From: Candidatus Omnitrophota bacterium | Lineage (GTDB): Bacteria > Omnitrophota > Gorgyraeia > 1-14-0-20-64-10 | DNA: 64,000 nucleotides | NCBI GenBank assembly: GCA_030651065.1 | Contig: JAUSCU010000077.1 | Location: 13,362-77,361, forward strand | Reading direction: 5' to 3' | Shown here: positions 13,989 to 26,050 of the stretch, in pieces | Layout: every line of letters begins with the position of its first letter | Numbering within the stretch: position 1 is the stretch's first letter | Translations under genes and position numbers: made by a program | Notes under the pieces: generated by a model | Told to the model about the DNA's origin: nothing | Database searches by the model: none | The model's input: the letters and a program-made list of their open reading frames with translations, nothing else

Positions 13989-14064
13989 TCCCCGGTAGCT
14001 CAGTCGGTAGAGCGGCTGACTGTTAATCAGCATGTCCCAGGTTCGAGTCCTGGCCGGGGAGCCA
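13989..14064 (+). tRNA. tRNA-Asn (anticodon GTT)
   Basis: The acceptor stem is TCCCCGG/CCGGGGA. The D-arm is AGCTCAGTCGGTAGAGC. The anticodon loop is CTGTTAA, with GTT at 14022-14024. The T-arm is GGTTCGAGTCC. G is the discriminator, and CCA is encoded. Confidence 0.9.
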
Positions 14065-15555
14065 ATTTGGACGAAGAAGCCCTTCGGCGAGTATGCCGAA
14101 GGGCTTTCTATATGTAGGGACTACGGTTGCGTCAACGAGGGTGTAGTTCGAGGCCACGAACTTGAGGATGGAGGCCTTGCCTTCGTACTTGGATTTAAGG
14201 TATTGCGGGTATAGGCGGTTAGAGAGTTCGAGGGTTCTAGAGGCGTTCTCGTACCAGTTCGGGTTTACCTTCCCCAGGCCGTTCAGGATGGCCTTGATTT
14301 CCGCGATAGTTGCCCTGTATTCGCCTTCTTTGGCCTTAAACGCCTCTTCATCTAACTCCCTGTCCAAACGGGCGTCATAGAGGCGGGAGAGCCGTTGGCT
14401 TGCCCGTTCCAGTTCTTTTTGCAGAGAGGCGACACGGTTCTCGCGTAGATCCTGGCTCTTGGCGTCGGCTTCCCGCAGGGCATCTTTCAGCCAGTCCACC
14501 GTCCCAGCGTCCAACGTTACCGCCTTGACCGCCGGCTCGAAGAGATGGGCGATTCGGTTCTCAGGGACGTAACCCCAGCCGTCATGCCTCCCCTTTGAAA
14601 ACGTGCAGTGGTAGTAAACAAACCGCTTCTTCTTGATCTCCCCCAGAACCTTGCACCCGCATTTCCCGCAGACAACGAGGTTGTTGAAGGCGAACCCGAG
14701 CCGACTCGCGTGAGGACGCGCCTTGCCATGTAAAGCGGCGTGTGCGTTATCGAAAAGGTCTTTGGTGATGAGGGGGGTATGACTTCCGCTTCGCACCTGT
14801 CCCTGCCAACGGAACACCCCGTAATAAATAGGGTTTTTCAAGAGCCATTCAATCCCGCTTTTTCCAACGCGACGACCTTTCTTGCCCCGAAAACCCTCCT
14901 GGTAAAGCATCTTGGCGATAGTTGCCAAAGAATAGGAGCCGGAGGCCATTAATTGAAACGCTCTGCGGATAAAAGGAGCGCGGTCTTCGTCTACTTCGAT
15001 CAGGTGGGTAATTCGGTTGTTCCTGTAGCCAAGTGGGGCAACAGAAGGGTATAGCCCTTGTTCGGCTTTCTCCATCATCCCCATCTTTGTTTTTCGGGAG
15101 ATGTCGTTCGACATCTTCTTGGCAACCGCAACTTCGATGTCGAACATGAACTCGTCTTCCGAGCCAGAGTTTCGGTCAATGATCTTTCCGGTCCGTGAGA
15201 AATGGATGGTCTTTCCAAAGTCCTTAATGAGGGTGCAGATTTTCAGCTTGTCGAAGTCGTTGCGGGTCATGCGGTCGGTTACGTCAAAGATGATGTGCTT
15301 AACTTCGTCATGCCGTTTGGCGTACTCGACAAGCTGATTGAAAGCGGCGCGTTCGCTTCGCCAAGCCGATTCCGAGACCTTCCAACTTCGGACTATAGAG
15401 AGGTTCTTCCGCTGGGCGTAATCCAGCCCTAACTTTTCCTGGGCATCCAGGGAATAACCTTCTTCTTGGGCGGTGCTTGAAACGCGAACATACAGGACGG
15501 CTTTGGGCGAGCCGTGGTAGCCGTTTGCGGAGGGCTGTGGTTGTTTCCTTGTCAT
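14023..15555 (-). CDS. Large serine recombinase (resolvase-type catalytic domain + recombinase domain + zinc ribbon)
   Basis: AVLYVRVSSTAQ contains the catalytic Ser in the resolvase N-terminal domain. The protein is 510 aa, with a recombinase domain and a C-terminal Cys cluster (CGKCGCKV...HC). Its 3' end overlaps the tRNA-Asn 3' half. Confidence 0.85.
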   Translation of the reverse strand: MTRKQPQPSANGYHGSPKAVLYVRVSSTAQEEGYSLDAQEKLGLDYAQRKNLSIVRSWKVSESAWRSERAAFNQLVEYAKRHDEVKHIIFDVTDRMTRNDFDKLKICTLIKDFGKTIHFSRTGKIIDRNSGSEDEFMFDIEVAVAKKMSNDISRKTKMGMMEKAEQGLYPSVAPLGYRNNRITHLIEVDEDRAPFIRRAFQLMASGSYSLATIAKMLYQEGFRGKKGRRVGKSGIEWLLKNPIYYGVFRWQGQVRSGSHTPLITKDLFDNAHAALHGKARPHASRLGFAFNNLVVCGKCGCKVLGEIKKKRFVYYHCTFSKGRHDGWGYVPENRIAHLFEPAVKAVTLDAGTVDWLKDALREADAKSQDLRENRVASLQKELERASQRLSRLYDARLDRELDEEAFKAKEGEYRATIAEIKAILNGLGKVNPNWYENASRTLELSNRLYPQYLKSKYEGKASILKFVASNYTLVDATVVPTYRKPFGILAEGLLRPNWLPGQDSNLGHAD

Positions 15556-15604: not shown

Positions 15605-16693
15605 TCACTGTCCAGACTTCCTTCGATTGTGGTTTTTACAGAGCATCTGGCAATTTTCTTCGGAGGTTTTGCCATCCAAGTGCCAAGGCTTAATATGGTC
15701 AGCTTCCATTTCTTCAAGCTCCCAATGTTTTGTCTTTGGGCATTTCGAGCAGATGCCTTTCTGTTTTTCGTAAGCCTTTTGCTTCTGAGGATCGGTGAAC
15801 GCTCGAATGTTGAGATGCTTTTCCTCGTGTGTCAGAAGATATGGGTAAATCCCCTTCTTGTTCGTTACGTCGTCATCCGCAATCAGCTTCGCCGTCTCCG
15901 CCTCGATTTTTGCCGTGTTGAACTTTTTGTCTTTGAATTCGTTGTAGAGTGCGCCCCATGCGACGCCTTTCATGAATTTTCTTTTCTTCGTGAACGTTGC
16001 GCCAACCCACTCCATCACGTTCTGAAAATAACTCCACAGCGCCTTGGCATCGGCATCCTTTTGGTGCTTGCCCATGTAATCCTCAATCTTGCCACCAGAA
16101 GTCCAATCAATCACCGCTTCTAAATAATCCTGACGTATCGGGGAGCCGTCCATATAGTCCTGCCCGATTTGATACGCGGCGCAACCTGTCTTACTGAAAT
16201 ACCGTTTCGCGTCGGAAACCCATGAACCCGCATAGACGGCGTTTCGCAATTCCTGCTCCGTCAACTTTTCTCCCGCGATGTTGATTGTCCTGAACCAATC
16301 CAACCTCTCGCTGTCCGTGCCTGTGCATTGATAGACCATTAGCTTATAGTTGAGGATTTGCGCCTGCTTGTCGTCGGGCAGATTATGGAAATACAACTGC
16401 TGAAACGAGAAATTGCCCTTCACATACTGGCAAACGGAAATCGTCCGCTGTTGCCCGTCGATCACCTCAAAGTTGCCGTCCTCCCGCACCGCCCAATACA
16501 TTACGTTCAGCGGAAAAGCTTTCGTGACGGTGTTGATGACGGCGTCGCGCTGTTTGTCCTTGTAAATGAACTCCCGCTGATACGGCGGACGAATGTCGAG
16601 GTTACCGCCATAGCCGACAACCCCTTCGAGGCCTTTGTCCTCGTAGCCCTCCGCCAGTTCACGGACGGTTATTTCTTTGAGCGTGATTTGCAT
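15605..16693 (-). CDS. DUF262 (ParB/Srx-like, DGQQR motif) plus a C-terminal HNH endonuclease. The architecture is GmrSD/BrxU-like.
   Basis: FEVIDGQQRTISVCQY is the DUF262 signature. The C-terminus CSKCPK...ADHIKPWHLDGKTSEENCQMLCKNHNRRK is an HNH His-Me finger. The gene is AT-rich. Confidence 0.7.
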   Translation of the reverse strand: MQITLKEITVRELAEGYEDKGLEGVVGYGGNLDIRPPYQREFIYKDKQRDAVINTVTKAFPLNVMYWAVREDGNFEVIDGQQRTISVCQYVKGNFSFQQLYFHNLPDDKQAQILNYKLMVYQCTGTDSERLDWFRTINIAGEKLTEQELRNAVYAGSWVSDAKRYFSKTGCAAYQIGQDYMDGSPIRQDYLEAVIDWTSGGKIEDYMGKHQKDADAKALWSYFQNVMEWVGATFTKKRKFMKGVAWGALYNEFKDKKFNTAKIEAETAKLIADDDVTNKKGIYPYLLTHEEKHLNIRAFTDPQKQKAYEKQKGICSKCPKTKHWELEEMEADHIKPWHLDGKTSEENCQMLCKNHNRRKSGQ

Positions 16694-17703
16694 GTTGCCC
16701 TTTTCCGTTTGATAACGATGCGAACATAAGTTGGTTTGCCATTTATTGTCCCGTCATTATCCTTGATGAGGCCGTGTTCTTTGAATGGCGTGTTATCGTT
16801 CGTGCGAATGTCATTCGCGCTTATTATCTTAAATTGGTCAGGATTGTATTTATCCAAGAACGTAATCGGTACGCCCATCGCGCCGTCATAATCACATGGG
16901 ATTTCTGCGTATTTATCCACGTTTATGGCGTCGTAGTTATCGTATTTTGGATATTCTTTTCGGCTGTATTTCTTGTATAAGATTAAATCTTGGTGGCGTT
17001 TTGCAGTATCCAAATTGGTGAGCCACACAATCCTGCCGCTGCTAAAAAATTTTTGTCCGTTTTCAATTTTTACACGAGATTTGGTTGCGATGTCGTAATG
17101 GTCTTTCACTCCGAACCATTTTGTGCCGTAATTATCCATACCCAGCCATATTTTATTGTCTCTGATGAGCGTGAAAATTTCCTTGTACGTTGTGGCGTTC
17201 TGGTCGCCGATGATGACAAACTGTTTTCCGTATTTCACGAGTTGCGCTACATATTCCCTGAATAAAGAAAACGGGGGATTCGTGACCACGATGTCGGATT
17301 GTTTCAGCAGTTCGATAGATTCCTTGCTACGGAAATCACCGTCGCCTTGCAAATGTTTGAGTCCGATTCGTTCGGGGGTGGGAACCTTGCCGCCTTGTTT
17401 TTCGCCCGCGTATTCCAGATAGACGGCTTTCTCGGAATCGTTCTCGCTGAACAAATCGGCGTTCTGGTTTTTGTAGCAGGTGGTGATGAGTTTTTTCAGT
17501 CCCAGCTCCCCGAACTTATTGGAGAAATAATGGAAAAAATTGCTGACTTTTGGGTCGTCGCAGTTGCAGAGAACGACTTTGCCTTTGAAATGCTTTTTGT
17601 AATGGCTGAGTTCCTTTTCGATGTCGGTGAGTTGAGTGTAAAACTCATCATTTTTCGCTTGCCTTGCCTTGTGCAAATTTGTGTTTAGCGTCTTTTTTGA
17701 CAT
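16669..17703 (-). CDS. N6-adenine DNA methyltransferase (NPPF motif IV)
   Basis: VVTNPPFSLF is a (D/N)PP(F/Y) motif, and the N-terminal DEFYTQ region also fits. The gene overlaps the downstream nuclease gene by 25 nt and is AT-rich. Confidence 0.7.
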   Translation of the reverse strand: MSKKTLNTNLHKARQAKNDEFYTQLTDIEKELSHYKKHFKGKVVLCNCDDPKVSNFFHYFSNKFGELGLKKLITTCYKNQNADLFSENDSEKAVYLEYAGEKQGGKVPTPERIGLKHLQGDGDFRSKESIELLKQSDIVVTNPPFSLFREYVAQLVKYGKQFVIIGDQNATTYKEIFTLIRDNKIWLGMDNYGTKWFGVKDHYDIATKSRVKIENGQKFFSSGRIVWLTNLDTAKRHQDLILYKKYSRKEYPKYDNYDAINVDKYAEIPCDYDGAMGVPITFLDKYNPDQFKIISANDIRTNDNTPFKEHGLIKDNDGTINGKPTYVRIVIKRKRATCKSRSKK

Positions 17704-17928: not shown

Positions 17929-19023
17929 TTATAGCACCTTATCTTTGAGGGCAAGCAAAACTTTGTCCAGCTTCTCGTCCAGCGTTGCCCTGGGGTTGCC
18001 AGCAAAGTCCATGCTCTTGATGATCTCTGTGAGCCGTGAGGGGGTGTAGTTGCCATAGGACGAAAGGGTAGTGGCGATATATTCGTGTCCGAAGTTTTGG
18101 CTTACGGCTTTCATTTCTTCCCCGTCTTTGCAGGAAGCGACTGCCAAATTGACTGCAAGGTGTCGGAAGGTGTGCGGGGGGAAGTAGGGCAGACTTGCCG
18201 CCTGGGAACGCTTCTTAAAAATCTCTCTGATTCTGCCCGTCCCTTGCCAGAAGGCAGGTTCCACATCGGACGATGCCTCGAAGCTGAGGTTGTCCGCGCC
18301 CTGATCTAGCTTGGACCGGGGAAAGAGGGGGTCTTGGGAGCCAAAGCCCTTCCCTTCCAGGTGTTTCACCCAACCCGTTAGGAATCCCACCATCTTTTGG
18401 TCAAATGGGAAAATGGTGGTGGGGATCAGCTTGGCGAACTTGGTTTCGACCCCTTTTCTCGGATTTTGGAGGATGGTCAACTTCTCTTTGTCGAAGCACC
18501 CAAGCGGCAAGGTGGCAACAGCTCGATCCCTCATCCCACTCAGAAGCGTGAATGAAATCAACGCTCTGTCCCGCAGATCAACCTCGGTCTTCGGCTCGAT
18601 GGAATCAACGAGCTTTCGGACGTAATCCAGAGAAGGGTAGTTGCGCGGGGTAGATTGGGTGGCAATCCGCTCTTCTTTCTCTGTGATCTTGAGGTAGTCC
18701 ACCGCATTGGGTTTGATTCTGCTTCTGTATCCCGTTTCCCGAACAAGCCAGCCGAAGAACTTCCGCAGGTACCTCATGTAGGCATGGTAGGTAACAATGG
18801 AAATCGGCTTGCCCCGAAACGCCCGTTTTGCCAACCACTTTTTGAAGTCAATTGCCTTATCGGAGTTGTAAAGGGCGAAGTCCTCATTCTTGGAGAACTC
18901 CTGCCAAAGCAATATGGCGTTCTCGATGTTGTTGACGGTCGAATCGCAACAGCCGGCCGCCTCTTTCAACCACCTAAAAAACGACCTCTTCACCCGCTCA
19001 TTTTTGGCGCTTACTTTTCGCAT
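17929..19023 (-). CDS. Tyrosine-type site-specific integrase
   Basis: A C-terminal catalytic region with HTFRHLAV...LSSYGNY (the conserved R, H-x-x-R and Y) is present, and the N-terminal SAM-like region contains RDRALISFTLLSGMR. The protein is 364 aa. Confidence 0.75.
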   Translation of the reverse strand: MRKVSAKNERVKRSFFRWLKEAAGCCDSTVNNIENAILLWQEFSKNEDFALYNSDKAIDFKKWLAKRAFRGKPISIVTYHAYMRYLRKFFGWLVRETGYRSRIKPNAVDYLKITEKEERIATQSTPRNYPSLDYVRKLVDSIEPKTEVDLRDRALISFTLLSGMRDRAVATLPLGCFDKEKLTILQNPRKGVETKFAKLIPTTIFPFDQKMVGFLTGWVKHLEGKGFGSQDPLFPRSKLDQGADNLSFEASSDVEPAFWQGTGRIREIFKKRSQAASLPYFPPHTFRHLAVNLAVASCKDGEEMKAVSQNFGHEYIATTLSSYGNYTPSRLTEIIKSMDFAGNPRATLDEKLDKVLLALKDKVL

Positions 19024-19531: not shown

Positions 19532-19790
19532 CTTCCCTATCCAGCTTGTCCAGGAGCCGAAAAAGCCCCGTCATGTTCTCGGCAATCTCCCGCGCATCCT
19601 CAAGTGTGAGGGGATAGGGATAGCGGGGTTGCCAGAACTTGATCGTCCGTTGAAGAAACTCTTCGCTAAACTCAGCCATAAGGTGTCGCGCAATGTCCTT
19701 TATGGCTAATGGAGAAAAATCACCAACGAGAGCCGATTTCTTGATGGCAAAACGGGGTTTTAGAGGGAGTGGCAGGGCAAAAAAAGTCGG

Positions 19791-19845
19791 CGAAAAATCA
19801 CCGAGGCCGGTGATAAATCACCCAAGCGGGTGAAAAATCACCGAG
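19791..19845. repeat. Three direct iteron-like repeats, spaced 20 bp apart
   Basis: The repeats are cgaaaaatcaccgag at 19791-19805, tgataaatcacccaag at 19811-19826 and tgaaaaatcaccgag at 19831-19845. Confidence 0.55.
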
Positions 19846-21013
19846 AATCGGATTCGGGCGTCAGGTTGATCTTGATGCGGTAGGAACTGTTCTCTTTGTA
19901 GGGGTAGAACGGGTCGCCTTTGATACCGAAACAGTCCCGCAGGGTTTTCGAGAGAAGCTGTTTCTTCTTTTTCAGGGTATCTCTCGCTTCGGAATCGTCC
20001 CAAGAGAACTCCCCGCCCCTCATGGCGAGGAGCTTTAAAAACTCCCATTGTTGGTTAGGCTTGCGGTTCCTGGCGTCCTCAAAGCCCATTTCCTTGTAGT
20101 GGGCGGTTACGGGTGTCTTGGTATCCTTGCCAGAGATTTTCACGTTATGGCCGTCCAAGAACTGAACGGTGAGGGCATCCCATTTCAAATGCTGGAACGG
20201 TTTGGAAGCATCCTTTTTCTGGGCTAGCGGGATAGGCTGGGGTTCTGAGGTATCGGCATCGAATTGGCTTTCTGGCAGTTTCAGAAGCTCGGCTTTGAAA
20301 AGATTGAACCGCTTGATGTCAATTTCAACGCGTATGTCCAGGACCATACCAAGATTGGAATGAGGAAACTCGAATCGGTCCACCACCCCTTTGTTTTTCA
20401 GGAACAAGAGGGCATATCGTCTGGCATCGTGGTTTTGGGTAGAACTGGCGGGAACCCACGTAATCCGAACTATCTGCGATGGATTAAGCTGGAATTTCTC
20501 ATCAATATCCAGGACGGCCTCACGCACTTTCTGTTTGTTTAGCGGAGTAAGGTCGGACAGCTTAATTCTGCGCCTGTGGAGAAGAATCTCCCGCCAGTTA
20601 TTGAACTCGGAGAACAAGATAAGCGTAATGGGGATGCTTTCGGGAAGCGGCGCGGGTCTATATGCCGGAACCGGTTTTCTTACTTCGGATATGCCCGTAT
20701 AGTTCGGAAAAACAAACGTATCCTCTCTTTCGTTGGGCGGAATGAGTTCTTTCCCATAATTCGTTTGGCTGATCGCAAATGCGTGTGCGCTCTGCTCGAC
20801 CATCGTTTCCAACACTACCAGCGTTTCATAGCGATAAAGCTTATCCAGTTGATTTTTTGGATTTGGGGTTAGCGCCACTTCGCCGGACGTGTTGTTTTCA
20901 GTAGCCGCTATGAGCGCGTCGCAGACAATAGCGAACTTTTCTTTTCCATCTAATGACGGCGTTTTCTTCTTATACCGAAAATCGCTTGGGTCTGGATGCG
21001 GGACTATAGGCAT
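19838..21013 (-). CDS. Hypothetical protein (391 aa, AT-rich, no domain I recognise)
   Basis: This is a long ORF transcribed divergently from the plus-strand defence operon. Its composition matches the island. Confidence 0.4.
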   Translation of the reverse strand: MPIVPHPDPSDFRYKKKTPSLDGKEKFAIVCDALIAATENNTSGEVALTPNPKNQLDKLYRYETLVVLETMVEQSAHAFAISQTNYGKELIPPNEREDTFVFPNYTGISEVRKPVPAYRPAPLPESIPITLILFSEFNNWREILLHRRRIKLSDLTPLNKQKVREAVLDIDEKFQLNPSQIVRITWVPASSTQNHDARRYALLFLKNKGVVDRFEFPHSNLGMVLDIRVEIDIKRFNLFKAELLKLPESQFDADTSEPQPIPLAQKKDASKPFQHLKWDALTVQFLDGHNVKISGKDTKTPVTAHYKEMGFEDARNRKPNQQWEFLKLLAMRGGEFSWDDSEARDTLKKKKQLLSKTLRDCFGIKGDPFYPYKENSSYRIKINLTPESDSR

Positions 21014-21098: not shown

Positions 21099-21890
21099 AT
21101 GACCCCAACGCCCCCATTCTCTGAACGACACGGCTATCAGCCCCAAGCTAAACCCATAACTATTTGGCACGAAGCCCCGCCATTTATGAGAGCAGCCATT
21201 TTGTCTGTTGCTGCTAAATCGGGGTTTCATCCAAATGGTTTACGATCCGTGATATGCGCTGTCCTAGATGAGATCCCGAATACGGGGCAAAATTGGAGTC
21301 CATCAAATGTCCTAGAGGAATGTGAAGGCCTGATTCATGGTTGCGAATGGTTCGAGGTTTATGACATTTGCGAAGCTCTAGCACGGGAAAGGCCATCCTA
21401 TGACGTTGAGCCTGGAGTTTTTGAGAAGAATTTGAACAATTTTTTCTTGAAAAAAGGCATCGGCTGGAAGATGGAGAACGGTTTGTTGTCAGTGCGCGGA
21501 GAGCAGGACTATGAAAAGGTAACCGCCGAAGCCATAGGCATTTTAGAGCAATCGGGGCGGTCAACTGCCCTGGGGGAACTTAGAGAAGCAATACGGGATT
21601 TGGCGAGGCGTCCAGAGCCAGACTTAACGGGTGCTGTTCAACATGCTATGGCCGCTCTCGAATGTCTTGCTAGGGATATGTGCGACTCCAAAAAGACCTT
21701 AGGTGATCTAATTAGAGAATTAGGGCTTCCAGCGCCCGTTGATGTAGCAGTCGAGAAAATGTGGGGTTTCGCCAGCAATCAAGGACGCCATGTTGCGGAA
21801 GGCAAGAAGCCGGAGCTTCCAGAAACCATGCTGACCGTCCATTTTTGTTCCGCGATAGTCTCGTACCTGTTGCAGAGAAAAACAGCGTAA
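21099..21890 (+). CDS. AbiJ-N-terminal-domain-like protein (possible Abi/HEPN-associated)
   Basis: The N-terminus MTPTPPFSERHGYQPQAKPITIW matches, from memory, the FS[EQ]RxGY start of AbiJ-NTD4-type proteins. I could not verify the C-terminal domain. Confidence 0.3.
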   Translation: MTPTPPFSERHGYQPQAKPITIWHEAPPFMRAAILSVAAKSGFHPNGLRSVICAVLDEIPNTGQNWSPSNVLEECEGLIHGCEWFEVYDICEALARERPSYDVEPGVFEKNLNNFFLKKGIGWKMENGLLSVRGEQDYEKVTAEAIGILEQSGRSTALGELREAIRDLARRPEPDLTGAVQHAMAALECLARDMCDSKKTLGDLIRELGLPAPVDVAVEKMWGFASNQGRHVAEGKKPELPETMLTVHFCSAIVSYLLQRKTA

Positions 21891-21936
21891 TAAGAAGATG
21901 GGGAACGGAGCAATCTAGCATTAGGCGGAGGTTGTC

Positions 21937-22635
21937 GTGAAAACATTACTCTGGGCGGTTGTGGTCATCGGCACGGTAGGTGCGCTCTTAGCCGGATTTA
22001 TACTCGTCCTTCTTAGATTGCGCGAAACAACCTTTGTGAGTGGGGAGTTTTTCAGGGAAACGATGGCTCAGATTATCGCGGGGTTGTTGATTGCCCTCAT
22101 TGCTTCTCTTGCCTCATTTTGGTCAGCCTATGGGTTATATAAGCTCCAGGAGAACGACAAGGTTGCTTCTTCGCAGGCAGATGCTTTCATAAAGATTAAA
22201 AACGAGGTCTCCGAAAATCGGTTAACTCTTGGACAAGAACTAAAACGAGAAAAACCTCTTGTTCGTAATCTTTTAAAAACAGAAGCTTGGGACGCGGGAA
22301 AGTATCAGACTCCAATAAAGACACCCTTGCTACTCGATGGGCTGAAACTCCTGTACGATTTAATCGAAAAATACAACTGGCACACTAATTTCCTTCGCTT
22401 CAAGGTCATGGAGCAAGGCTTGACCCAACAAGGCGTTCCCGAAACCGTCTGGAAATCTGATGCCGCAATAATGAAAGAAGTTTATTCAAAACTAGAGGAA
22501 TTTGAGAACCTCACGACGCGGGAGCTTATTTTGCTGGGTCACGGCTCTCAAAGTGAATTTGAGAAGAGATTCGGACCCTGGCAGGCGCAGGTTGATATTT
22601 CGTTTTTTAAACAGGCCGCCAAAGACGGCAAGTAG
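21937..22635 (+). CDS. Small membrane protein with two TM helices
   Basis: The first TM helix is LLWAVVVIGTVGALLAGFILVLL and the second is IIAGLLIALIASLASFWSAYGL. A soluble C-terminus of about 150 aa follows. A 3-bp gap separates it from the next gene. Confidence 0.5.
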   Translation: MKTLLWAVVVIGTVGALLAGFILVLLRLRETTFVSGEFFRETMAQIIAGLLIALIASLASFWSAYGLYKLQENDKVASSQADAFIKIKNEVSENRLTLGQELKREKPLVRNLLKTEAWDAGKYQTPIKTPLLLDGLKLLYDLIEKYNWHTNFLRFKVMEQGLTQQGVPETVWKSDAAIMKEVYSKLEEFENLTTRELILLGHGSQSEFEKRFGPWQAQVDISFFKQAAKDGK

Positions 22636-22638
22636 CTA

Positions 22639-23511
22639 ATGAACGAGCCGGCAGTAAGTTTCGATTGTTGTGTTGAGGGTTACCTCAACAATTTTCAATG
22701 TGACAATCCAAGCGTTTTTGAGGGTGCTCCGGGGGTTATGCTGTCCCCGTTAAGTGATGAGGAAAAAAGAGAACTCAAAAATATCTCGGCATTCCATTCC
22801 GGTTATTCATTTGCTGAATGGAAATTAGAAATAAGTTTGTCATCGGTAACTGGAATAGGCGAAGCTGATAATAAAGCAGAAGCAATAATCCAGGATGTCG
22901 TAACTTCGCTTAGATTAACCAAGTCGGGTGGAGTAGAGATCCGCACTTTGAGATTTAGATCGGATAACCTCCCTCCTAATATTTCATTCCTTAATAATTC
23001 GGGCGTAACCAATCCGCAACCGAGCTATAGAGAAGGTACGTATCAATGTTCCGGGTCGGATCTCGAACAAACCCGTAACATCTATAGAAAACTACAGCAA
23101 GCCGTTTCGAGCAGATTGCGGATAGGAATCGGCCGCTTCAACACCGCATACCTAGATTATCGTGATGAAGATAAGTTGATCGACAATATCACAGCTTTGG
23201 AAGCCCTTTTATTGCGAGAATCACAAGAGCTAAGTTTGAGGCTATCCCTGCGCTGTGCTTGTTTGCTTCGTAAAGGAGATGAGCGCAAAACGCTGTTTGA
23301 GTTCGTGAAAGAGGCTTACTCTTGGCGCAACAAGCTAATTCACGGGGGACAATATAATCTCCCGGACGAGCTTGTAGTAGGCCAAACCAAATTTAACAAG
23401 CATTCCTTCCTAGTATTTCTGCAACAAGTAGTTCGTGACTGCATAAAACTTTCTTTAATGAATTCGGAAATGGTCGATAAGAAAAATCTCGAAAATCTAA
23501 ATCCATTCTAG
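22639..23511 (+). CDS. HEPN-domain protein (Rx4H motif), Abi/Apea-like
   Basis: The C-terminal region ITALEALLLRE...LRLSLRCACLL...VKEAYSWRNKLIHGG contains the R-x4-H HEPN RNase signature. A 2-bp gap separates it from the SIR2 gene. Confidence 0.55.
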   Translation: MNEPAVSFDCCVEGYLNNFQCDNPSVFEGAPGVMLSPLSDEEKRELKNISAFHSGYSFAEWKLEISLSSVTGIGEADNKAEAIIQDVVTSLRLTKSGGVEIRTLRFRSDNLPPNISFLNNSGVTNPQPSYREGTYQCSGSDLEQTRNIYRKLQQAVSSRLRIGIGRFNTAYLDYRDEDKLIDNITALEALLLRESQELSLRLSLRCACLLRKGDERKTLFEFVKEAYSWRNKLIHGGQYNLPDELVVGQTKFNKHSFLVFLQQVVRDCIKLSLMNSEMVDKKNLENLNPF

Positions 23512-23513
23512 AA

Positions 23514-24557
23514 ATGAGTTCTCCTGATGAATTTAGCGTTACAAAAGAGCAGGAAATCCGCCAGTTGGCTATGTTGAGACCTCATGTGGTGATCGTCGGA
23601 GCCGGCGCCTCGGTCGCATCATTTCCGCGTGGCGACAGGAATGGTCGAATGCTTCCTGTGATGGATAACTTGGTAGAAGTATTACAGCTCCGAAATTTGT
23701 TTGAAAAACATGGCGTGAAGCATGAGGGAATCGGTTTTGAGACATTATATGCTGAGCTTTATGAGGACGAAAAACTTCGCCCATTATGCACGGGGCTGGA
23801 AGAGCGAATCTCAGAGTATTTTCAACAGGTAGAAATTGTCGACGATCCTACTATTTACGACCATTTAGTGCTTTCCCTTCGGAAAAAGGATGTCCTAGCT
23901 TCTTTTAATTGGGACCCTCTTTTGCTGCAGGCCTATTTGCGGGTCGGCCATAAAGGGTTTCATGTGCCGCGATTAATTTTCCTGCATGGCAATGTGGGAA
24001 TTGGTTTTTGTGAAAAAGACCGACAACTCGGAGTGAAGGGTCGCCTTTGTACTGAATGTAGAAAGAGCCTCGCGCCATCGAAATTGTTGTATCCGGTAAC
24101 TAAAAAAGATTACCAGTCAGACCCCATGATTAAAGGCCAATGGGACGAGTTATTGGCCGCCATGAAACGAGCTTTTATGATCACGATTTTTGGCTATTCT
24201 GCTCCTAAAACTGATGTTGGCGCGATCGATTTACTACTCAATGCATGGAAGGGGGAGCGCGAAAGAGAGCTAGAACAAGTTGAAATTATAGACATTAAAA
24301 CGGAAGAAGAACTTCGGCGGACGTGGGAACCATTCATTTTTTCTCACCATTACGAGACATTGACCGATTTCTATGAATCGTATCTAGCCCGACACCCCAG
24401 GAGAAGCGGGGAGGCGTACATGAATCAATTTATCGAAGGCAAATTCACGGAAGATAACCCACTGCCAAAGAGTGTCGGATTTGAAGAGCTAGAAAAGTGG
24501 GCGCAACCACTTCAACATCGAGAGACATTGGCTGGCTATTCTATGTTCTCTGGATAG
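23514..24557 (+). CDS. SIR2-like (SIR2_2 family) NAD-dependent protein, a candidate NADase effector
   Basis: VVIVGAGASVASFP is the SIR2_2 N-terminal Rossmann motif. FNWDPLL is the N-x-D motif containing the catalytic Asn. LHGNVG is the HG motif containing the catalytic His. A partial zinc module CEKD...CTEC is present. Confidence 0.7.
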   Translation: MSSPDEFSVTKEQEIRQLAMLRPHVVIVGAGASVASFPRGDRNGRMLPVMDNLVEVLQLRNLFEKHGVKHEGIGFETLYAELYEDEKLRPLCTGLEERISEYFQQVEIVDDPTIYDHLVLSLRKKDVLASFNWDPLLLQAYLRVGHKGFHVPRLIFLHGNVGIGFCEKDRQLGVKGRLCTECRKSLAPSKLLYPVTKKDYQSDPMIKGQWDELLAAMKRAFMITIFGYSAPKTDVGAIDLLLNAWKGERERELEQVEIIDIKTEEELRRTWEPFIFSHHYETLTDFYESYLARHPRRSGEAYMNQFIEGKFTEDNPLPKSVGFEELEKWAQPLQHRETLAGYSMFSG

Positions 24558-24626
24558 CTGATTTTATGATTCAATAGGGACATCTCTGCGACTGTTGGGA
24601 AGTGAGGATTGGTTTCAAGGATATTC

Positions 24627-24668
24627 CCGTACAGGAAGCAGTTGCGAAGTTCGTCCAGTACGGGGAGT
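24627..24668. repeat. 41-bp hairpin-containing repeat, copy A
   Basis: The sequence ccgtacaggaagcagttgcgaagttcgtccagtacggggagt has palindromic arms CCGTAC/GTACGG. It is about 108 bp upstream of the gene at 24776. Confidence 0.6.
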
Positions 24669-24775
24669 CTTCCTTTGTTCATTTTCCATTCAGACAGACG
24701 ACCCGGCCGGGGCGCCCTCTTTGGACGGGAAAGCCCTTCTAGGAGTATACTGAATCCAATTCAGGAGGTGACGCG

Positions 24776-25174
24776 ATGAAGAAGAGCTGGTTACAGGGGC
24801 TCACCCTGGCATTGGTTATTGTAGGAACGGTTTTCCTCTTCCGGGTTGGCGTGGGAATCTCAAGTGAGAAGGCACGTCTGCAGGACGACGCGTCCGTTGA
24901 AGGTTCCGTCGTTTCTCTCGATCAATCCTCTCCCATTCCGGTCCTCGATTTAAAGACAGCCGACGACAAGATCGTCAAGATAAACATCGACAGCGAAACC
25001 ACCGTTTTGCAGGATAACCAGGTCGGCTCGTTGGGCCAACTGGCTCCCGGCCAGCGCGTGAAGGTCCATTACGGGACCAAGAACGGAAAGCAGGTCACCA
25101 CCTCCGTTGTCATCATTTCGCCCCTTCTCAGTTTTCCACCTGCGAATGAGCAGCCCCATCCCCTTGGGGAGTAG
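24776..25174 (+). CDS. Secreted hypothetical protein with a beta-rich OB-like fold
   Basis: A signal/TM segment (LTLALVIVGTVFLF) is present, and the coding pattern is good. Confidence 0.4.
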   Translation: MKKSWLQGLTLALVIVGTVFLFRVGVGISSEKARLQDDASVEGSVVSLDQSSPIPVLDLKTADDKIVKINIDSETTVLQDNQVGSLGQLAPGQRVKVHYGTKNGKQVTTSVVIISPLLSFPPANEQPHPLGE

Positions 25175-25216
25175 CGCGCGCGTTTCACCGACAAATAAAC
25201 CTAAAGGAGGTGCGCC

Positions 25217-25390
25217 ATGTTGTCATGGTCACTGGCGTTCTTTGTCATCGCGATCATCGCCGGCATTTTCGGCTTCACGGGGATAGCCGCCGGCGCCGTC
25301 GAAATCGCGAAAATCCTGTTTCTGCTTTTCCTCGTGCTGTTCCTCGTGTCTCTTGTTTTCGCGCTGCTCTTAGTGCGCCCCAGGTCTTAG
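25217..25390 (+). CDS. UPF0391/DUF1328 small membrane protein (57 aa)
   Basis: My hand translation gives [58 protein letters not shown] strong RBS (AAGGAGG) lies 6 nt upstream. Confidence 0.6.
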
Positions 25391-25933
25391 ATGAGCGCAT
25401 TTGCCGATCGGATCGTTCGGGCCGCGAGGCTTGACCCGAGTTTGTACGAAGAAGTGGAGGCGGACCGGGCCGCTTTCCCCCAGGCTGCGGCAACGGTGGT
25501 TTTATCAAGCGTTGCAGCGGGATTGGGACTGCTTTGGCCTGGGGTAGGCCTGGAAGGGTTGTTTTGGGGCACTCTGGCGGCCCTCGTGGGATGGGTTGCC
25601 TGGGCGTGCGTGATCTGTTTTGTGGGGACTCAGCTACTCCCGGGATCTCAGACCTCCTCCAACATGGGGGAGGTGTTGCGGTGCGTTGGATTTGCCAGCG
25701 CCCCCGGTTTGATCCGCGTTCTGGGGGTGTTTGCGCCGATTCGGCCGGTTGTTTTCCTTGTCGTTTCGGTTTGGATGCTGGCCGCCACGATTGTGGCTGT
25801 CCGGCAGGCGCTTGATTATTCGAGCACGCTCAAGGCAGTTGTTGTCTGTCTCGTCGGATGGGTGATTCAAATCCTGGTACTCGTGGCCATCCTGCGGCTT
25901 AGCGGAGCGCCCTATCTGGTTGTAACTCCCTAG
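25391..25933 (+). CDS. Yip1-family membrane protein
   Basis: The N-terminal soluble segment is followed by about 5 TM helices, which matches the Yip1/DUF1282 pattern. Confidence 0.5.
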   Translation: MSAFADRIVRAARLDPSLYEEVEADRAAFPQAAATVVLSSVAAGLGLLWPGVGLEGLFWGTLAALVGWVAWACVICFVGTQLLPGSQTSSNMGEVLRCVGFASAPGLIRVLGVFAPIRPVVFLVVSVWMLAATIVAVRQALDYSSTLKAVVVCLVGWVIQILVLVAILRLSGAPYLVVTP

Positions 25934-25966
25934 CCCTGCCAGCATAGAGGATCAAAGACAGGTTTT

Positions 25967-26008
25967 CCGTACAGAAAGCAGTTGCGAAGTTCGTCCAGTA
26001 CGGGGAGT
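25967..26008. repeat. 41-bp hairpin-containing repeat, copy B
   Basis: The sequence ccgtacagaaagcagttgcgaagttcgtccagtacggggagt differs from copy A by 1 nt. It lies upstream of the LpxL-like gene. Confidence 0.6.
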
Positions 26009-26050
26009 TTTGGGGGGCGGAGGATGATCTCCTCCGCCCTTTTTCTTTAG

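Follow-up and report, generated by a model that had tools for sequence, protein, structure and literature searches.

Four co-directional genes at positions 21099-24557 of a 64,000-nucleotide stretch from a Candidatus Omnitrophota bacterium (GenBank assembly GCA_030651065.1, contig JAUSCU010000077.1, positions 13,362 to 77,361 of the forward strand; the whole stretch is hereafter called the window, and its own numbering is used throughout) probably represent three candidate anti-phage modules of independent evolutionary origin, which accumulated head-to-tail as a stack and are probably co-transcribed. The modules are gene 1 (21099-21890, plus strand, 263 amino acids [aa]), which encodes an AbiJ-type protein; gene 2 (21937-22635, plus strand, 232 aa) together with gene 3 (22639-23511, plus strand, 290 aa), which encode a membrane protein and a HEPN-like protein, respectively; and gene 4 (23514-24557, plus strand, 347 aa), which encodes a stand-alone SIR2-fold protein. 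The modules are regarded as independent because gene 4 has no conserved neighbors and none of the relatives of gene 3 is accompanied by gene 2 or gene 4. An earlier note on this DNA had proposed one new three-gene system (membrane protein, HEPN protein and SIR2 protein) or, alternatively, two or three adjacent single-gene abortive infection (Abi) loci; the single system is not supported, as the gene order is not conserved, and the alternative is favored, with the qualification that genes 2 and 3 may form a pair. The novelty of the locus is in its unannotated gene families, not in the gene arrangement.

The four plus-strand open reading frames (ORFs) and their spacing of 46, 3 and 2 bp were confirmed from the coordinates and junctions. 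Gene 1 ends with TAA and is followed after 46 nt by the GTG start of gene 2, with a GGAGG-like site present, and the junctions between genes 2 and 3 and between genes 3 and 4 read TAG-cta-ATG and TAG-aa-ATG, respectively. No convincing internal terminator or promoter was identified in the four-gene cluster, the counts of such sites being not above those in shuffled controls, and co-transcription of the four genes is plausible on this layout. The 3- and 2-bp gaps and the lack of an evident internal terminator speak for a single translationally coupled system of genes 2–4, with or without gene 1, in which a membrane sensor would control both a HEPN RNase and a SIR2 NADase; the interchangeable downstream partners of gene 2 described below likewise resemble a conserved sensor with swappable effectors. 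Nevertheless, such a system is considered quite unlikely. Each of the adjacencies between genes 1 and 2, genes 2 and 3, and genes 3 and 4 was found in the window only, among the loci sampled; the membrane-HEPN-SIR2 order, the conservation of which the earlier note had asked about, was not found in any sampled locus; and none of the sampled gene 2 loci contains a relative of gene 3 or gene 4. In addition, the gene 4 family is stand-alone in 80 of 80 sampled genomes, and a search for fusion proteins joining a gene 2-like or transmembrane domain to the gene 3 superfamily yielded none.

Further evidence against a single system comes from the closest relative of gene 3, an orthologue with 75% identity in a locus from another metagenome (L099), which is flanked by neither gene 2 nor gene 4 and is preceded by a region containing stop codons in all frames and no ORF. 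The sequence located 3′ of this orthologue (L099:1380-1451) is 83% identical by blastn to positions 24600-24669 of the window, which belong to a conserved flank element (24600-24671) situated just downstream of gene 4. Because the 3′ flank of the orthologue matches the flank that follows gene 4 in the window, gene 4 is an indel located between gene 3 and the conserved downstream element.

The 48-nt core of this element is present as a direct repeat (24624-24671 and 25964-26011), the copies of which are 94% identical and 1.34 kb apart (0 matches expected by chance) and which is also kept in the other metagenome, downstream of the gene 3 orthologue (L099:1385-1450). Read on the minus strand, the element gives LPVLDELRNCFLYG(NILETNPHF), which includes DELRNCFLY, with mostly synonymous differences, and in the window a minus-strand ORF of ~48 aa with an ATG start begins 3′ of gene 4 and runs into the 3′ end of gene 4. 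The element looks like a short coding remnant or a mini-gene; a structured RNA or an attC-like site was rejected, with no match in Rfam and a stem that L099 does not preserve. The repeats enclose two small ORFs (24776-25933), the first encoding 132 aa with a signal or transmembrane segment and a weak DUF1344 match, the second a 180-aa polytopic membrane protein, and a strong terminator hairpin (~26013-26048) follows the second copy. In L099, the start of a YccV/HspQ-like ORF (MNTTKALYKPGQ; L099:300-436 and 1464-1498) occurs twice, once on either side of the gene 3 orthologue, and the upstream copy stops after ~45 codons, an arrangement that suggests a cassette insertion with duplication of the 5′ end of the target gene.

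The gene 4 family, annotated as hypothetical only, comprises over 4,900 clusters (E ≤ 1e-3) and occurs in at least 590 of ~185,000 species, covering most bacterial phyla, Candidate Phyla Radiation (CPR) lineages, Asgard archaea and methanogens. The homologues across these taxa are 44–55% identical and ~330–345 aa in length (typically ~336 aa). The family is also found on conjugative plasmids and is absent from 50,697 phage genomes. In a sample of 80 homologue loci with flanks of up to 6 kb, relatives of genes 1 and 2 were absent within 6 kb (0/80), a member of the gene 3 superfamily was found once (1/80, 2.2 kb away), and no recurrent neighbor was identified, the largest cluster of neighbors being integrases (6/80). 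The gaps between the homologues and their neighbors have a median of ~100–150 nt, and the 141 immediate neighbors are heterogeneous, some of them being integrases, methyltransferases, Mrr, MazF, SoFic, Schlafen and PDC-S candidates. The gene 4 family is stand-alone and horizontally spread. On the conjugative Legionella plasmid pLPL (L100:3450-4427), the homologue has umuDC on one side and a type I-F cas operon on the other, and on the Vibrio megaplasmid pOCN014 (L101:5962-6993), it lies in an island with SIR2-family, SLATT, mobile mystery A/B and McrBC genes; both homologues are annotated as "hypothetical protein". The occurrence on plasmids, the CRISPR-Cas and SIR2/SLATT/McrBC neighbors and the absence of phage copies support a defence or mobile role for gene 4.

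Gene 4 is not recognized by existing profiles. The hidden Markov model (HMM) searches that had been proposed beforehand as a check returned no SIR2_2 or HEPN match in Pfam, PADLOC or NCBIfam, a result that weakens the case made for the cluster: gene 4 gave no Pfam match at E ≤ 10, including SIR2_2 (PF13289) and SIR2, no PADLOC match at E ≤ 0.1, and no SIR2 match in NCBIfam at E ≤ 10, in which the lone match was a chance-level peptidyl-dipeptidase. No model of PADLOC v2 matches gene 4, and a Pfam domain is absent in 120 of the 120 listed homologues. Against PDB sequences, a single-sequence phmmer search returned nothing meaningful, and the full family profile reached the sirtuin Sir2Tm at a sub-threshold E of 0.36. 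Its matches to an enterovirus 3C protease and an octahaem nitrite reductase were rejected as chance matches, as were those of a core-only sub-profile to MetRS and nitrite reductase, which reflect Cys-rich sequence.

At the level of structure, however, the SIR2 assignment made in the earlier note holds for the fold, if not for the SIR2_2 family model. The AlphaFold2 model of gene 4 has a pLDDT of 89, and the top 20 matches of this model in a Foldseek search of PDB without exception have the SIR2 fold (E 4e-9 to 1e-4), which supports a SIR2 (sirtuin) Rossmann-type fold for the predicted structure. The GAGAS, N-x-D and HG motifs, described earlier as intact, proved to be invariant in 32 family sequences; 65 positions are invariant in this set, including GAGAS, FNWDP, FLHGN, C166/C179/C182 and HPRR, and the NAD-site residues G29/G31/A32/S33, N132/D134 and H158 are all among the unchanged residues. 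The protein has a Zn-ribbon insert with three cysteines and, at its C-terminus, a conserved extension of ~90 aa, in which W271, H279, HPRR294-297 and W329 are conserved. A weak hhalign alignment (E 0.01) with Escherichia coli CobB equates FNWD with QNID and LHG with MHG, and also aligns the Zn cysteines.

It is conceivable, but unlikely, that gene 4 is not a defence effector and encodes instead a mobile sirtuin-type deacylase or ADP-ribosyltransferase that acts on a conserved cellular or plasmid target and is located here by chance. The Zn-ribbon cysteines and the N-x-D and H-G motifs that align with a genuine deacylase, CobB, the unusually strong conservation across domains of life, the lack of a matching PADLOC model, the absence from phages and the fact that most immediate neighbors are not defence genes all agree with such an enzyme, and the Zn site and the strong conservation leave room for another role, such as that of a deacylase or an ADP-ribosyltransferase. 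Against this, the distribution of the family is patchy (590 of the ~185,000 species) and its genomic context variable; its members reside on conjugative plasmids and in islands beside CRISPR-Cas, McrBC, SLATT and restriction-modification (R-M) genes; and the best structural match of the model is the defence SIR2 protein of the SIR2/HerA system.

Gene 3 is predicted to consist of an alpha/beta N-terminal domain (residues 1–137) and a C-terminal HEPN-like helical domain (residues 139–290). The earlier identification of this protein as HEPN is consistent with the predicted HEPN-like bundle and stands with respect to the Rx4H motif, as R230-x4-H235 is invariant in 122 aligned sequences, but not with respect to profiles: gene 3 has no Pfam match at E ≤ 10, no PADLOC match at E ≤ 0.1 and no HEPN family match in NCBIfam at E ≤ 10, and phmmer against PDB sequences returned nothing meaningful. 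When 10 and then 122 members of the superfamily were scanned against Pfam and PADLOC, no named HEPN family was obtained save for one weak match, to HEPN_RiboL-PSP at 0.0037, in 1 of the 122. In all, 12,138 cluster representatives (3,341 at E ≤ 1e-10) were recovered with the gene 3 profile; their median length is ~434 aa, and most are ~430–460 aa long. The homologous region is the C-terminal half, and the Rx4H region has Y, R and H as invariant residues. The gene 3 superfamily is a very large, unannotated, HEPN-like superfamily essentially without Pfam or PADLOC coverage. Only five close relatives of gene 3 were found; those in two loci (L001 and L002) adjoin a BamHI R-M system, and another (L003) is preceded by an HD_4 protein. 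Gene 2 or gene 4 was not found as a neighbor of gene 3 relatives in any locus examined.

Gene 2 encodes an inner-membrane protein with two N-terminal transmembrane helices, as reported earlier and as the transmembrane prediction agrees; all full-length relatives have the same two helices. Its soluble domain is helical, comprises ~165 aa and contains the conserved sequences EVSENRLTL, LKTxAWxxGK and DGLKLLYDxIEKYN in the family alignment. The family is rare, with 12 relatives in 5.8 billion clusters, none of which has a Pfam domain. Searches of Pfam, PADLOC, NCBIfam and PDB sequences (phmmer) with gene 2 gave no meaningful match, a scan of viral contigs for the family was negative, and a metagenome scan yielded no loci beyond those already in the set.

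In every lineage for which sequence is available, a co-directional gene is located 6–110 bp downstream of the gene 2 relative. This partner is a Ymh-HEPN protein in two loci (L009/L012; 1e-40), a split Ymh protein in L015, a Zn-ribbon ORF together with a DUF4145-HEPN protein in L004 (3e-20), gene 3 in the window and, in L006, a 193-aa protein that carries an RNRTLH motif; in L017/L103/L104 it is a 183-aa protein with two transmembrane helices, in L018 a polytopic membrane protein and in L016 a truncated secreted protein. A HEPN partner from one of three HEPN families thus stands beside gene 2 in 4/8 lineages. The 193-aa protein could not be confirmed as a further HEPN partner: Pfam, hhalign and PDB phmmer searches were all negative, and the motif is its sole HEPN feature. 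The pair of gene 2 and the gene for the 183-aa protein is intact beside two different R-M systems, of HinfI type and MjaI type, and therefore moves as a unit.

HEPN genes are assumed here to make up less than 1% of genes. By this rough estimate, HEPN partners in 4/8 lineages lie well above the chance expectation; for this reason, genes 2 and 3 plausibly form a single two-gene module, the effector of which is swappable. The other possibility is that gene 2 is unrelated to gene 3 and is a stand-alone membrane Abi or toxin-like gene, its pairing being a by-product of HEPN-rich defence islands. This is rather unlikely. It would accommodate the membrane or secreted, non-HEPN nature of the downstream gene in 3/8 lineages, the L006 partner that could not be confirmed as HEPN and the fact that relatives of gene 3 never have a gene 2 neighbor, but it is at odds with the same-strand partner found immediately downstream in every lineage with available sequence, with the HEPN partners of three families at far above the rough expected frequency and with the 183-aa pair that stays intact beside different R-M systems.

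The AbiJ-like N-terminus ascribed to gene 1 was corroborated by a match to Pfam AbiJ_NTD4 (7.4e-18, residues 6–135), which is above the Pfam cutoff. Residues 55–260 of the 263 residues match the PADLOC single-gene candidate PDC-S32 (3.2e-22), and gene 1 is thus already catalogued under this name; as to whether the cluster had been catalogued, the answer is affirmative for gene 1, whereas genes 2–4 have no PADLOC match. No papers on PDC-S32 were found in a literature search, and to our knowledge it is a bioinformatic candidate only. The C-terminal sequence of gene 1, FASNQGRHVAEG, contains SNQGRH, which is not a canonical Rx4-6H motif in this single sequence. RNase activity of gene 1 is uncertain because the motif reads SNQGRH. 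None of the sampled loci of genes 2, 3 and 4 contains a relative of gene 1.

A mode of action can be proposed for each of the three modules. The first module would be an AbiJ-type single-gene module (the PDC-S32 candidate) in which AbiJ_NTD4 is fused to an AbiJ-like C-terminal region; its N-terminal domain may sense infection, and its C-terminal region may act as an RNase. In the second module, gene 2 would be a membrane-anchored sensor or regulator controlling gene 3, and gene 3 would be an RNase effector that acts through Rx4H, so that RNA cleavage upon infection would lead to growth arrest. The third module, gene 4, would be an auto-inhibited NAD+-consuming effector, either an NADase or an ADP-ribosyltransferase, the C-terminal extension of which is likely the regulatory or sensing part. 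Triggering by phages and an outcome of abortive infection would complete these putative mechanisms, and the defence function of the locus is inferred from genomic context. A bolder proposal is that gene 2 is the membrane core of an undescribed modular family with interchangeable effectors, these being either small membrane proteins or HEPN RNases of three or more families, and here drives both genes 3 and 4, and that the gene 4 family is a new, widespread single-gene sirtuin-type immune enzyme of bacteria, CPR and Asgard archaea; this we regard as improbable.

The four genes lie in a low-G+C region at ~14–25 kb (G+C content 0.43–0.55, as compared with 0.60–0.68 in the flanks), and the earlier description of an AT-rich tRNA-Asn island proved accurate in this respect and in the presence of the tRNA gene at 13989-14064. 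The tRNA-Asn gene is overlapped by the 3′ end of a large serine recombinase gene (14023-15555), which is followed by a complete minus-strand type II R-M pair (15605-17703), in which the gene for the restriction enzyme overlaps that for the methyltransferase, and by a tyrosine integrase gene (17929-19023). The restriction enzyme combines GmrSD_N and HNH domains (PADLOC REase_II, 8e-135), and the methyltransferase is an EcoRI-like adenine methyltransferase (PADLOC MTase_II, 3e-130; Pfam, 1e-135). Because low G+C content, the tRNA-Asn gene, the recombinases and the R-M pair coincide, an integrated element carrying defence genes is taken to be real, and the presence of two recombinases in the low-G+C region suggests that two elements were inserted in tandem. 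No direct repeat derived from tRNA-Asn was found at the far end of the island in a search for it; the right edge probably lies near 24.7–26.0 kb, as the G+C content rises across positions 24776-25933. An unannotated 391-aa ORF on the minus strand (19838-21013) is divergent from gene 1, and three tandem 20-bp iteron-like repeats (AAGTCGGCGAAAAATCACCGAG and variants, 19784-19845) are located at its 3′ end; these may be putative binding sites for a regulator, an integrase arm or the replication of the element.

As the membrane-HEPN-SIR2 unit was not upheld, cloning effort on the wrong construct is spared. Three families that annotation has missed are brought to light, namely, a stand-alone SIR2-fold family, a HEPN-like superfamily and a rare family of proteins with two transmembrane helices. 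If the gene 4 family is indeed a single-gene NAD+-targeting defence, it would be a compact and very widespread addition to the sirtuin immune effectors, and tools that search for defence systems would gain a model that they currently lack.

With regard to known systems, gene 1 resembles AbiJ and PDC-S32 in its AbiJ_NTD4 domain and its near full-length match to the latter, and differs from AbiJ in having SNQGRH in the C-terminal region instead of a clear Rx4-6H motif. AbiJ-NTD is known to be fused to AbiJ-type HEPN domains, often near R-M systems, and Ymh, DUF4145 and AbiJ are established HEPN families; proteins with HEPN fused to transmembrane segments are also known (PMC3710099; Anantharaman et al., 2013). 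Like HEPN Abi proteins, gene 3 has a predicted HEPN-like bundle with Rx4H, and HEPN proteins of the Ymh and DUF4145 families are found as partners of gene 2 relatives. However, the transmembrane protein and the HEPN protein are encoded here by separate genes, in contrast to the fused proteins, and no existing Pfam or PADLOC model matches the gene 2 family or the gene 3 superfamily.

Gene 4 is comparable with several SIR2 defence systems. The best structural match to its model is the SIR2 protein of SIR2/HerA (Nezha, GAO_19; 8wld; E 4e-9, template modelling score ~0.53), a SIR2 NADase effector of similar size; however, the adjacent HerA helicase gene that this system requires is neither beside gene 4 nor recurrent in the 80 homologue loci, sequence identity is 13%, and no PADLOC SIR2/HerA match was obtained. 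ThsA of Thoeris, structures of which are among the Foldseek matches (E 1e-4 to 1e-5), and DSR1/DSR2 are likewise SIR2-fold, NAD+-depleting effectors. Gene 4 differs from Thoeris in being without a SLOG domain and in the lack of a PADLOC Thoeris match for itself or its neighbors, with no TIR domain in the 10 island ORFs scanned, and it differs from DSR1/DSR2, which are ~1000-aa proteins with an N-terminal SIR2 domain and a large C-terminal sensor, in its length of 347 aa and in the lack of a PADLOC match. In contrast to both systems, it carries sirtuin-like Zn cysteines.

The nearest concept to gene 4, as compared by description only, is sole-Sir2, a small stand-alone SIR2 protein that acts as a one-gene defence: it is a single-gene SIR2 NADase, a homologue of which protects against T2 and T4 (bioRxiv 10.1101/2024.12.27.630466). 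Sole-Sir2 is ~440 aa in length and combines an N-terminal sensor with a C-terminal DSR2-like SIR2 domain, whereas in gene 4 (347 aa) the SIR2 core is N-terminal and is accompanied by a Zn-ribbon insert and a ~90-aa C-terminal extension. The two are alike in their association with CRISPR-Cas, in that sole-Sir2 is CRISPR-supervised and the gene 4 homologue on Legionella pLPL also adjoins CRISPR-Cas genes.

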